From IMG/VR virus record IMGVR_UViG_3300035698_031273, positions 32,001 through 96,000 of that record: a stretch of DNA of 64,000 nt. One strand, written 5' to 3'. This stretch comes from a virus. A program made the translations under genes and the position numbers. The notes under the pieces were generated by a model, which was not told the origin of the DNA, searched no databases, and worked only from the letters and a program-made list of their open reading frames with translations. Within the stretch, counting starts at the first letter, position 1. The number at the start of each line of letters is the position of its first letter. Shown here one piece after another: positions 17,480 to 55,414 of the stretch.

Positions 17480-18580
17480 ATGATAAAAACCAAGATACGC
17501 TACGCATGTTTTTTAAATCATACGGGATATAGTCAAGCAGCACAGGATTATATCTTAGCTTTATATAATAGTGGCAAATATGATATTAAAATAAATTTAT
17601 ATGGAAAGCACCCTTCTAAATTAGCTATATCTGAGAAAACAAATAAATTATTTAAAAATATGATAGATAAAGATGATAATGGTCGTAAAATACTTATATA
17701 TCATTGTATTCCACCTATGCAAAAAAGAGCTGCTTCTTCTAAAATAAATATTGGTTTTGGTACTTTTGAGACTTTTTCACCTCCAGATGATTGGGTGTCA
17801 ATTCTTAAAAGAAATACGGCAGTAATTTTTCCTTCTAGTTTTAATAAAAAAATATTTAGTAATTTTTTGTTTAAAAAACCATGTTTTCATATTCCTCATT
17901 GTGTGAATACTGAATTATATAATGATGCAGTTGAGCCTAAAATTAATTATGACAAATTCACATTTTTATTTATTGGTAGTTGGAGGCTACGAAAGGGTTA
18001 TTCTGCATTACTTGAGGCATATTTTTCTGAATTTGATGTTTCTGATAATGTGCAATTACTTATAAAGACCGATAAGTCAGACCAATCTGAAAAATATATT
18101 TGTGAGTTAAAACGTCAATACAAATTAAAAAGTAAAGGATTACCATCTATTATTTTTGAAAAAGATATATTGGATGAAACAAAAATGCCGGGATTTTTAA
18201 AATCTGCAAATTGTTTAATAATGCCGACAATGGGAGAAGGCTTCGGTTTACCAGGTTTGCAGTGCATGTCTCTTGGAGTACCTATAGTTATAACAAATTT
18301 TTCAGGGTGCCAAGACTATGCTAATAACGACAGGGCAACAATGTTGGAAATAGAGGGATATAGACAATTTTCTAATTTAGATAGGATACCTCAATTTTCC
18401 AATAAAAAATGGGCATTTGTTTCTGTGAGACAAATAAAAGAAAAGATGAGATTTGTGGTAAATAATTATGAACAGGTAGAAAATAAAGCTAAAAATGCCA
18501 TACCGTTTGTTCATAAAGAATTTAATTATAATATCACAGAAGAAAAATTTTCTAGTATGTTGGGAATGTTTTATGATTAA
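17480..18580 (+). CDS. Glycosyltransferase, GT-B fold family 4
   Basis: TGYSQAA N-terminal motif, FIGSWRLRKG, and EGFGLPGLQCMSLGVPIVIT signature. Confidence 0.9.
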   Translation: MIKTKIRYACFLNHTGYSQAAQDYILALYNSGKYDIKINLYGKHPSKLAISEKTNKLFKNMIDKDDNGRKILIYHCIPPMQKRAASSKINIGFGTFETFSPPDDWVSILKRNTAVIFPSSFNKKIFSNFLFKKPCFHIPHCVNTELYNDAVEPKINYDKFTFLFIGSWRLRKGYSALLEAYFSEFDVSDNVQLLIKTDKSDQSEKYICELKRQYKLKSKGLPSIIFEKDILDETKMPGFLKSANCLIMPTMGEGFGLPGLQCMSLGVPIVITNFSGCQDYANNDRATMLEIEGYRQFSNLDRIPQFSNKKWAFVSVRQIKEKMRFVVNNYEQVENKAKNAIPFVHKEFNYNITEEKFSSMLGMFYD

Positions 18581-21500
18581 AGCTATAATTGATCCTCAGT
18601 TTGGAACTATAGAGCAGGCTAAACATTTAAGGTTGAGTTTATTTAATCTTCCTAATGATACAGGAATGCGTATCAAAATAGAAGATGCTACCAATTTATG
18701 TGCAGTAAAATTTAATGGGGAAGATAATTTTGATATAAATCCTAATATAAAGAATGTTAATGGAACTATTAATATTACTATTCCTGAAGAATGTGCATAT
18801 AATGTTATTAGTTTGTTCGTGTTTTTATTCAAGAAGGAATCAGATGCTTATAAATTGTTTAGGATAATACCTTTTGTTTATCATGTAAAAAAAGAATTAT
18901 TTAAATCAGAATTTGATGGAAAAATAAATTTATTTCCTTCATTTGTCGAGAAAAGTCAATCTTTTATGATATCTGTGCAGGCTGATCCTAATACTGAATA
19001 TTTTGTATTAATAAATGACAAAGATTTTTTTATTAAGACTAATGAAATTGGTGCTGGTACTACTCATGCCAAAGCAACTGATTTTTTAATTAATAAAGAA
19101 GTTGTTGTTCTTCAGAATTTTCCAATAGGAATATCTAAAAGTAAGAATGAAATTCCGTGTTTTAGTGGGTGTGAACTTTGTGTTTTGCCAAATAATGTAA
19201 AAACACATGTAGATCCTCGTTGTGAAATCTCAGGTTATATATTTACTTTACCTGAAGAATGTAAAGATTCTGAAATACCAGAGGATGTGGTACCTACTCC
19301 TCCTGATCCTAGAGTGGAACCAATAGATATAGAAACGAAACGTACCGACTGTAAGAATAAGATGGTAGATCATACGGGATTAGAATTTTGTAGAATAAAT
19401 AATCATGATGCTACTATTTTAGCAAGTGGACAGTCATTACATGCTGTAATAAGTGTTGATTCTGAAATTGTGGAATCAAGTAATGAAGCATATAATTATC
19501 CGAGAATATTTATATTAGATGACGAGTCTTCATTAGATGTGCAGGTATTATTTAGTGCTAAAGTATCTGTTCCTCCAAAAGCTACTACTGATGACTTGGT
19601 AATATATGTTGACAAAAATACTTATGATATGTGTTCTAGAATCTTTAGTGAAACGGTGTATATTGTTGTGTTTAATGAACAACTTGGTTATCGTTCATTT
19701 GAATTAATTGGCAGAGAAATTCCAGATAATTATGTTCCTTTTTATAGAGTAATTGCTTCTAAGGGAGAATCAACCGTTTCGGTTGATGAATGGATTCTTT
19801 GTGAATATGCTGTGTTTTTCATAAAGGGTGAGTCTTATCCTAATATTGAAGCTTCTTATGTGGAAACACTACCAATTATAAAAGATTCTTCTGCTAATAT
19901 TGTTCCTTCTCTCAGTGTAACAATAGCAAGCAATCGATATCATGTTGGATCTTCATACGAATCTTATGTTTATGTTATTGCTGAGGCTGTTATTTCTAAT
20001 GAAAGTCAACTTTTTTATTATTCTTTTACTGTTGGAGAAACTGGATATTTAAGTAAAAGTTTTGGATGGAAACAAATTACTTATGATGGAAATAATTATA
20101 ATCCTAAGGCAATTGTTGATTCTCGTGGAAGTGTACATGTAACATGGGAAAGCGATAGAACAGGGAATATTCAAGTATATTATGGAGTTCTTGGTCCAGC
20201 TTCTCGCATGTTGGGAAATACAATTTTATCTTCGATATGTGATAAATATGCAGAATTATATAGAAAAGAGGATAAGCCTTTTACATATGTTACCGAGAAT
20301 GTAATTATTGATGCTGGACAAGAATATGGAATATCACCTCAAATTGTTTTCGATAGTTATCCTGTCTTAGATACATTGGAAAGTGGAGTGGTTACAATTA
20401 AGGGTGAAGATTCTTTTTCTGTTTCTGGTAATCCTATTTCAGACACAGCTATGTTTTTCTATGCTTTAGATGATGATTCTGGATTAGATTTAAATAATAA
20501 TATGTTACAAATTAACTATCAAGTTGATTTTAATTTTTCAATGTCTATATCAAGAACTTCTCCAATTGATGAAGATGTAACGTTGTCTGGTTCTATAAAT
20601 CCTTTACAAATAGACGATTTATTTTCTCAATGGAAACAACAATTTACTTTTTCAAGCAATACAGATATTTATAATTTTCCTGTTTATTCTATAGGAAATA
20701 ATACGTTTATAATAGGTAGACAAGATTCTCTTTATGATCGTATTTTTCCAATAGTTGGGGCTTATCGTAATTCAGATATAGATCATGTTGCTGCTGAAAC
20801 TGATATAGCATTATCTTTTGTGCCAATATTAAATGGTGATGATAGCAATGTTAGACACTGGATTATTGGAGTTATGCCAGAAAAAGTTAGATTTGAAGCT
20901 AATAATTTAATTAGAACACAATTGGATTGGTGTAGTGAGAAAGGTGTTATATGTACTCCAGATTGTGGATACGTAGACAACATGAGTGAAATTGTATATA
21001 CAGGAAAAGCAAAATTTGTTTTTGTGTATAATGGAGATGATTCTTTTTATGGTACTCCTGATTATAGGAAAGCAGGAATTGTAAGAGAAATTAATGGGTC
21101 TTTTGATTTAGCAGAAATAAATAATATTCAAATAATTGTTGGGTATGAGAAACTTTATGCAGAAAATTTTTCTGACTTATTTGAAGAAAAAGATTATTCG
21201 TTTGAACAAGAAACTTCTTTTTATATTTGTACTGTTACATTATTTTTTAATAATAATGCTATTTTTTCTGAATCTTTTCCCACTAGTCTTGCCAGCATAG
21301 ATCGGTTTGATTTAGGATTTGGATTGCCCACAGGAGGATATTTAATAACCGATGATTTTTATCCATATGAGTCAAATATTTTTGATGATTTAGAAGAAAC
21401 AAGTTTTAATGTTGAGTTTGACAATATTGTTTTATCTTCTCCTACTTTTTATGTAAATGAGGAGATTGCTATAGTTCCCTTGTCTATTAGAAACATTTTA

Positions 21501-55400: not shown

Positions 55401-55414
55401 TTACTATTTTGTGA
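52406..55414 (+). CDS. Structural protein with C-terminal half-vWA and Ig-like repeats
   Basis: 1002 aa, GTGA overlap. GGSPLYDAL, LYVLTDNE and LKIAYMTGG; three Ig-like repeats similar to those in 29073. Confidence 0.7.
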   Translation: MILTQRIKLDGKRSSSFVITLRDDGGELITSNVLLLVRGFLKFSSSSNTSENVNQQDAVNLLTERSVVYPVLFAEKEVVSRDGKAVITLLPRSEDILQSTSEILSGLGLTVSIESGETSNDTGVGIGSLVIVHGQERVPYSIEVEITVLDVDYYGQTTNSDGESNERVSRFAGLALQQGNNVSIECYSDIEWIPTVSKRIFDNEGSVSEILNIIDNMSYEVPFGGSPLYDALIVSSEFLSDNSIDNLQKILYVLTDNESNLSFYSIDDAIEQINAIDGQGKVPSLIGNFSVVSPITLSAKANITDVNNLLKIAYMTGGQSVTVLSEQYKDELVSIFLGQTTGSVGYGEYKFTVDLETQVTLNTVSLIFVMPENTSVEWSMSIGTDGYNFVDVDGTYNSDSNVNMEGVNARYIKFSVIFITGFFSVESLDDPYYSPSLANSPQLVECIFTYNKEKISYLILNSENTVSTPQNVVLCTDVNNIDGINSSQIKAGVTTSDSHNWLDFDLSSQQAVDQDGKTIIPVRFSSSDDELSSEYAYKIDKYAYMVKYGRWNYDAVVIVYDSNSNVINPTLYKVSPRDGLIVFDSYRSEAQLTINIIDQAKIKPGFRFSNVDSSQTIRIDGLGYMYNTNINLSPPVEKLPPEATNLFVLPAKPEIYQPIFSNYTFYDINFDQEDTTGRIIKWYINDVYIPYLDDITKWNDITDPNDPIYEYVFTFTYDEVPSGRTVESYAREKKESLLYVGDMIHFTIKVTDGQLFSPSTKSPIVTVVEGQPIVSVAKIWAMDEEGNLYDPSTSDVSDRLSSDRSAVLVYTLISDIDTDSSEIIWYVNEAEFKKGTIVSTENIDRILKGETNEDNVVALRISNEIYAKIIPYTGSKEGQAITTDTVVVKNSLPEITSIIFAKTPRADEDMVLVWEFYDYEIDGLSDDGQSNNTRVEWYKYDDGLQKFQLVTDNNNIFTIIPNSTSTVGSEILEAGQIWKARVTPNDSLDDGTTVESSIVTIL

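Follow-up and report, generated by a model that had tools for sequence, protein, structure and literature searches.

Gene fission in a module of giant huge-phage proteins, and a putative vWA domain shared between two of the chains

In phage T4, the consecutive genes gp34-gp35-gp36-gp37 encode consecutive segments of one appendage, which has exchangeable binding modules and trimeric coiled or beta-helical junctions. In chaperone-usher pili, a strand or hairpin of the next subunit completes the sheet of the previous subunit. A third relevant class is that of Rosetta-stone fusion and fission pairs (a term linked with Marcotte and Enright, 1999), in which collinearity is said to be a classic indicator of physical association. 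Here we analyse a run of very large open reading frames (ORFs), C, D, E, F, G, H, I, J, K, L, M and N, in a 64,000-nt stretch of virus DNA (hereafter the window), which comprises bases 32001-96000 of the 107,069-bp IMG/VR record IMGVR_UViG_3300035698_031273. At four junctions in this run, adjacent genes encode what in relatives is a single chain. Our favoured reading, to which we give a probability of roughly 0.6, is that giant proteins underwent fission and that the pieces reassemble through formerly intramolecular surfaces.

The locus resembles each of these systems in part. With T4-type fibre chains it shares consecutive genes for consecutive segments and exchangeable modules, whereas the joints proposed here would be split globular folds; no homology of the block proteins to T4-type tail fibres was detected. 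Its likeness to donor-strand complementation is conceptual, residues 5-20 of M being modelled beside the last strand of K, but there is no pilin fold, chaperone, usher or periplasm here. General Pfam and PHROG scans contained no pilin or chaperone family, and the likeness to pili is an analogy only. As in Rosetta-stone pairs, separate adjacent proteins are collinear with single relative proteins at all four junctions; unlike such pairs, the four lie in one structural module, their states are lineage-linked and at least one fold spans the cut.

That fold is a candidate vWA domain. It shares with canonical vWA or integrin I-type domains that have a metal-ion-dependent adhesion site (MIDAS; PF00092, PF13519) the DxSxS strand, the GG(S/T) loop and the TD(N/G)E strand, in the usual order, and the A-D strand pairing predicted for it is likewise as expected. 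It differs from them in that about 2,000 residues of other domains interrupt the fold after strand C, in that a gene boundary lies inside this interruption, so that the metal ligands would come from two chains, and in having serine for threonine. To our knowledge, no vWA/MIDAS domain naturally assembled from two proteins has been described, and literature searches found no report of this protein family or of a split vWA.

Split and fused states across relatives

All four boundaries are gene-fission points: C/D (22289/22302), H/I (31163/31160), K/(L)/M (45395/46656) and M/N (52409/52406). Adjacent proteins of the window were collinear with one protein of a relative as M+N, as Kc+M+N (Kc being the conserved C-terminal 270 aa of K), as H+I and as C+D. 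Homologues of M were bimodal in length, with forms of ~1,900-2,030 aa corresponding to M alone and forms of ~2,900-3,340 aa to M and N in collinear order, and N had 29 full-length homologues of 1,000-1,055 aa. In the fused protein P0033, the Kelch end continues straight into the start of N. Kc lies N-terminal to M+N in five database proteins and nine IMG/VR loci, where the unbroken Kc+M+N ORFs measure 3,230-3,264 aa. In six related genomes H stands as an ORF of ~700 aa, and in seven it makes up the first quarter of an ORF of 2,749-2,810 aa; among cluster representatives at 50% identity, ~17 forms are split and ~19 fused. C and D are fused in G001 (1,761 aa), G003 and G004 (2,418 and 2,388 aa), P0100, P0112 and P0113, and split in G002, G005 and the window.

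Scanning with an alignment of N homologues recovered 18 IMG/VR loci on contigs of 28-548 kb (a scan with the single N protein found none). These were split in L004-L009 and L018, and carried one Kc+M+N ORF in L010-L017 and L019. The genomes split at M/N were the same genomes that are split at H/I, and the fused ones corresponded likewise. When a tree was built from the N-terminal 700 aa of M and rooted on the most divergent relative (a single long branch), 16 of 18 split forms fell into one clade, and the deeper clades and the outgroup were all fused. This suggests that fission is the derived condition and that the state changed at least three times. The original prediction, which was made from the window's sequence by itself, had supposed that ancestral mega-proteins were cut; fused ORFs that cover each junction in related huge phages, and the deeper position of fused M+N on the tree, bear this out.

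Two further boundaries in the run are of interest. Gene J (37768-43485) is one gene of 1905 aa here and two ORFs (1510 and 1492 aa) in G003, the second of which has ~1,070 additional N-terminal residues; fission and fusion in the module therefore go in both directions. G and H (29061-29075) lie in the same frame with one TAG and three codons between them, and are separate genes in relatives too.

The ORFs, stops and coupled starts were as originally described, with overlaps of TTGA at H/I and GTGA at M/N. Are the stops real? As the window comes from a single metagenome assembly of low read depth, they might be assembly or sequencing errors, or the genes might be decaying pseudogenes. However, contigs from four sequencing runs crossed K/L, L/M and M/N with no substitutions and no indels (these bridging contigs are of low depth and their samples may be related), the same splits recurred in many independent assemblies at 35-82% identity, and all of the ORFs are long and open. 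We reject assembly error because of this recurrence and the unchanged bridging contigs, and find error or decay hardly credible as an explanation.

It could also be that the pieces are recoded into single chains, by programmed frameshifting, stop read-through or protein splicing through split inteins. The GTGA and TTGA overlaps would suit such a mechanism, as would the single reading frame of C/D and of G/H and the tail of L, which continues the canonical N-terminus of M in another frame. Against this, the gaps, overlaps and frames at the same junctions differ among split relatives, which have their own start codons and N-terminal extensions, and C ends in a TAA TAG double stop ahead of D; frameshifting and read-through were rejected on these grounds. 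No slippery heptamer (XXXYYYZ-type) was seen by eye before the stop of M, and no programmed-frameshift signal was seen at L/M, where GGA-TAA-A gives no +1 re-pairing. Split inteins were rejected because the junctions are too tight for intein halves: in alignments with fused homologues, gaps at the end of M and at the start of N do not exceed ~10 residues, and the same is true of H/I and K/M. An alternative genetic code was also tested and rejected. Recoding of any kind is, in our judgement, very unlikely.

The candidate two-chain vWA domain of M and N

How might the pieces hold together? The best-supported case would be one discontinuous vWA/MIDAS domain built from M and N. Residues 76-135 of M present, in order, strand A with DQSGS, a helix, and strands B and C, and M aa 79-130 matched only positions 2-52 of the Pfam profile VWA_2 (E 1.4e-5). 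N is without DxSxS and has the motifs GGSPLYDAL, KILYVLTDNE and LKIAYMTGG together with the remaining helix-strand units, and homologues of N matched VWA_2 positions 51-106 and 56-106 (E 1.6e-3 and 1.6e-2, below threshold). Residues D83, Q84, S85, G86, S87 and M88 were invariant in 16 split-form M proteins, and G224, S226, D230, K249, Y252 and D256 in 29 N proteins; both motif blocks (DxSGS in M, and that of N) are retained in the fused clade. The MIDAS residue set is present, distributed over two chains, with D83, S85 and S87 in M and S226 and D256 in N. The contig contains exactly one first half and one second half of a vWA. It had been claimed that motifs of one domain lie in different genes at the junctions, which held for the vWA of M and N and for the propeller blades of C and D, and could not be substantiated for the lectin-like region of H and I.

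Modelled alone with AlphaFold2 (AF2), the halves were poorly ordered. The predicted local distance difference test (pLDDT) of N was 29-64 over aa 190-345, with strands D-F absent, and the vWA half of M was mostly below pLDDT 50 in a model of the natural Kc-M fusion. When N 1-350 and M 60-150 were predicted as a complex, the score was 0.71, compared to 0.00 for the best of three controls. In a rough calibration, for which we supplied our own alignments, 0.71 was reached by 58 of 80 solved complexes and by 2 of 110 mismatched pairs. The runs shared at least 77% of contacts and the partner had a pLDDT of at least 64. The predicted complex placed M 77-83 against N 249-254, which is the A-D strand adjacency expected of a vWA fold, and M 116-123 next to N 196-205. 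Comparing the pair with its halves was the check put forward with the original prediction, and refolding in trans, then suggested for all of the split domains, is predicted for the vWA halves and not shown for H/I and C/D. Together, the motifs, profile matches and models offer good but indirect support, for the vWA domain only, and we conclude that this domain probably re-forms across M and N and clamps them together.

Several points weigh against this conclusion. Pfam vWA scores were under the gathering cut-off (26.1 vs 27 bits for M; 19.4 and 16.3 for N homologues), and a Pfam scan of the window's own N gave no vWA match. At the position where a MIDAS normally has threonine, N has S226. The alignments given to AF2 were shallow, at 23-29 rows. 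Sequence searches of the PDB found no match for a profile of the vWA half of N and nothing useful for N aa 121-345 or M aa 1-248. The complex score may reflect the model's memory of single-chain vWA folds and not binding: halves of a known fold can pass from such memory, and what the result shows is therefore a resemblance of the two pieces to a single vWA, not their binding.

The vWA is also where plain fission at inter-domain linkers, without fold complementation, has to be weighed. The products would then meet through ordinary interfaces (for example in a baseplate) or act separately, and the half-vWA of M would be a conserved structural relic or have another partner. Plain fission is favoured by the M/N gene boundary, which falls after the Kelch propeller and before the beta-sandwich with which N itself begins, and by the other junctions described below: C ends just past a complete copy of a domain (domain X) of which D has its own, no fold was assigned at H/I, and fused proteins, too, have insertions at the H/I point. 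However, it does not sit easily with MIDAS-type residues that are invariant on both chains across ~35-45% identity, with two segments that match complementary halves of a Pfam profile, with a single copy of each half in the contig, both disordered when modelled alone, or with a complex score so far above the best control. We therefore regard it as a possible but somewhat unlikely account. The original idea that the boundaries lie mid-domain survives only in part, since they fall mostly at or near module borders and a mid-domain position is not shown for all four. What extends over M and N is the discontinuous vWA fold and not the cut point; the domain is split across genes because its fold was already interrupted by an insertion of ~2,000 residues.

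Under our favoured reading, single chains of sister lineages would have been cut into adjacent genes in the window's lineage, at C/D, H/I, Kc/M and M/N, variable binding modules (InlB-B repeats, LamG, FG-GAP) would have been gained at or near the new ends, and the pieces most likely still assemble via once-intramolecular surfaces. M aa 76-135 would contribute strand A with DxSGS, helix 1 and strands B-C. After ~1,780 residues of M (fn3, LamG, Kelch) and ~190 residues of N, N aa ~195-340 would contribute the remaining helices, strands D-F and the metal ligands S226 and D256. By folding in trans, the vWA would clamp N to an N-terminal hub of M. The last strand of K and the first hairpin of M probably belong to one continuous sheet, through which K would be docked on this hub as well.

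Directly after the vWA half, N and its homologues have an F5/8 type C (discoidin-like, galactose-binding) domain, which was detected at sub-threshold scores (best E 1.3e-4).

The other junctions and the cassettes at the breaks

For K and M, the AF2 model of a natural fusion (L010 aa 1-430) showed a confident CBM6/35-like module followed by a second beta sub-domain. The CBM module, a beta-jelly-roll, matched 8j3x_A in VIA-align over model residues 17-161 (Z 16.6, root-mean-square deviation 2.0 Å, 126 aligned residues); many CBM6/35 entries followed 8j3x_A in the VIA listing and Foldseek agreed. VIA and Foldseek searches of the Kc-M model returned the CBM module only. Over the K/M boundary the model has three consecutive short strands, 266-270, 275-279 and 286-290, which are equivalent to SAVKV of K and to TWLLD and FTIYS of M and have turns of 4-6 residues between them. 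The model is in keeping with a cut inside a sheet. The strands were modelled at moderate confidence only (pLDDT 57-65), which tells against the sheet, and the beta-sandwich originally proposed across K and M gains only moderate support from the model.

Between K and M lies L. The start of M at 46656 makes an 8 nt overlap with the end of L, MDKNTW being in the +1 frame relative to L, and M starts at the same position in P0034, which is 79-81% identical. Most simply, an FG-GAP cassette would have become attached to the free N-terminus of M, and a frame change would later have separated the two. Alternatively, the arrangement looks like an old M start captured by L.

At H/I, the tail of H and the head of I are conserved right to the boundary in every relative examined. 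Their earlier description as a lectin-like domain found no support. Pfam searches of the H tail, the I head, the G1 and G3 equivalents and an in-frame G005 read-through (TAA as Q) gave no lectin-like family, so that even natural read-through yielded nothing, and an in-silico profile of H tail plus I head, compared by hhalign with the LamG profile of the locus itself, reached a probability of 0.3%. No fold could be assigned to the H tail and I head by Pfam or hhalign, which is a further point against reassembly at this junction.

Elsewhere in H, aa 125-240 (29445-29792) form a repeat unit of ~115 aa, which occurs in 5 to 23 copies in many other giant metagenomic proteins of 1,000-5,300 aa.

At C/D, a blade hidden Markov model built from gene I found three blades in C (aa 510-537, 1053-1070 and 1090-1130) and one in D (aa 668-695), and a fused relative has these four blades too, in unchanged order. 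Two points count against a propeller split between C and D. Only four dispersed blades were detectable, and a complete domain X lies on each side of the junction, so the cut may be at a domain border. Domain X is also found near the C-terminus of I (aa 2047-2116, about 37300-37500) and in I/J-like proteins of relatives, and fused C+D has a single copy.

In sum, the mechanism has support at M/N and is plausible at K/M, and at H/I and at C/D only motifs hint at a possible complementation of the two chains. We consider it unlikely that the full arrangement exists, namely an appendage whose subunits are ordered and locked by serial split folds (a sheet shared by K and M, the two-chain vWA of M and N, a divided head domain in H and I and a divided propeller in C and D), with the freed ends as hot spots for cassettes.

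What has been added at the breaks varies: LamG, InlB-B repeats, FG-GAP and, in one relative, a metallophosphoesterase. The unrelated modules first noted at the breaks (an FG-GAP gene, a LamG domain in I and InlB-B repeats in D) were located as described, and different cassettes indeed occupy the same breakpoints in relatives, at H/I, at C/D and at the N-terminus of Kc. The H/I breakpoint holds a 268-aa LamG cassette in the window, a 232-aa LamG cassette in G008, a 517-aa N-terminal module with a calcineurin-like metallophosphoesterase (E 9.7e-10) in G007 (L046:2684-4234:-), and no cassette in G001, G002, G005 and G006; at the same point the fused clade has an insert of 129-135 aa with no family assigned. 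The InlB-B cassette of the window is absent from fused C+D forms, and stand-alone D proteins have one to several repeats, or a different head of ~380 aa. At the N-terminus of Kc there is LamG in the window, FG-GAP in five relatives and modules without family assignment in two, and nothing in the fused clade. Cassettes do sit at or near the new ends. Free ends, first thought of as slots for swapping cassettes, are not strictly required for insertion, because the fused clade also has the H/I insert.

Table 1. Genes and features at the four junctions (window coordinates; ~ marks approximate limits)
Feature	Nucleotides	Strand	Residues	Remarks
Gene C	18573..22289	+	1238 aa	
C, BNR-like propeller blades	20100-20183, 21729-21962		510-537, 1053-1130	
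C, terminal domain X	22032-22235		1154-1221	~70-80 aa
Gene D	22302..25607	+	1101 aa	ATG start at 22302
D, variable N-terminal cassette	22302-23762		1-487	three InlB-B repeats, aa ~206-445
D, second copy of domain X	23778-23990		493-563	
D, blade and propeller-closing motif	24249-24419		650-706	
Gene H	29073..31163	+	696 aa	
H, C-terminal tail	31044-31160		last ~39 aa	LPDNDGWEL...EGLVINT...; conserved to the stop codon in every relative examined
Gene I	31160..37762	+	2200 aa	TTG start overlapping the TGA of H (TTGA)
I, LamG cassette	31160-31963		1-268	LamG domain, aa 107-247
I, conserved head	31964-32344		269-395	GGKWYYSQ...GWTVD...YINDG
I, propeller			405-740	6-7 blades
Gene K	43512..45395	+	627 aa	
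K, N-terminal LamG			89-227	
K, conserved C-terminal part (Kc)			343-627	CBM6/35-like module, ~aa 371-517
K, last strand	45378-45392			SAVKV
Gene L	45398..46663	+	421 aa	FG-GAP propeller
L, C-terminal end	46616-46660		last 15 aa	MIDYYKGLGGQSSDG; resembles the N-terminus of M homologues, consensus ..LLEYYKALNGESS..
Gene M	46656..52409	+	1917 aa	
M, N-terminal hairpin	46668-46715		5-20	
M, first vWA part (putative)	46881-47060		76-135	with DQSGS
M, further domains, in order				fn3-like; LamG, aa 319-472; Kelch, aa ~1553-1737
Gene N	52406..55414	+	1002 aa	GTG start overlapping the TGA of M (GTGA)
N, beta-sandwich			1-190	
N, second vWA part (putative)	52988-53425		~195-340	
N, F5/8-C-like domain	53441-53785		~346-460	
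N, tandem Ig/fn3-like domains			640-1002	

Genomic setting and significance

The DNA has a G+C content of 31%, with nearly all genes on the + strand, and near-identical sequence was found only in salt-lake metagenomes. CheckV gave the record a completeness of 22%, and it is therefore a fragment of a genome of several hundred kb; a search for TerL in the 107-kb fragment did not find it. Upstream of the window are a PHROG 'minor tail protein' (PHROG 290) and further phage genes, and downstream of the giant genes are glycosyltransferases and a helicase. The gene order of the whole module is kept in G001 (461 kb, with terminal repeats) and G003 (371 kb), where X1-X3, A-N (the large genes before C through to N), the glycosyltransferases and the helicase are syntenic.

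A Pfam scan of C-N found adhesin-type modules only: InlB-B in D, LamG in G, I, K and M, fn3 in J, FG-GAP in L, Kelch in M, propeller motifs in I and a partial VWA_2 in M. PHROG scans of C-N were nearly empty. M aa 158-256 had 35% identity to a Bacillus phage tail protein, and K had a weak match to 'virion structural protein' in the PHROG scan. The giant multidomain proteins of this region would make up a conserved module that follows the tail genes of a huge phage and probably forms a tail-distal adhesin or fibre apparatus. We infer this virion location from gene order and weak matches, and the slightness of those matches has to be set against it.

Four glycosyltransferase genes (GT4, GT2, GT4, GT2), at 17480-18580 and 55411-58051, lie inside and just after the giant-protein block and are syntenic in G001 and G003 at 34-55% identity. 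They may serve to glycosylate the appendage proteins.

Overall, the locus combines known themes, namely gene fission, domain insertion and fold complementation. What is new is the lineage-linked pattern of fission at four junctions with cassettes at the breaks, plus the frame oddity at L/M. If the serial split-fold arrangement held, there would be a metal site made of two polypeptides, and a metal ion could then be needed for assembly or for engaging the receptor. If our favoured reading is true, the vWA clasp would be a compact natural joint for very large proteins, and fused homologues would provide a ready map of touching subunits. It would also yield a testable rule for the giant adhesins of huge phages: the chain is divided, the former intramolecular interface is retained, and cassettes are added at the new ends. 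In practical terms, this would allow better annotation of many giant ORFs in huge-phage genomes.

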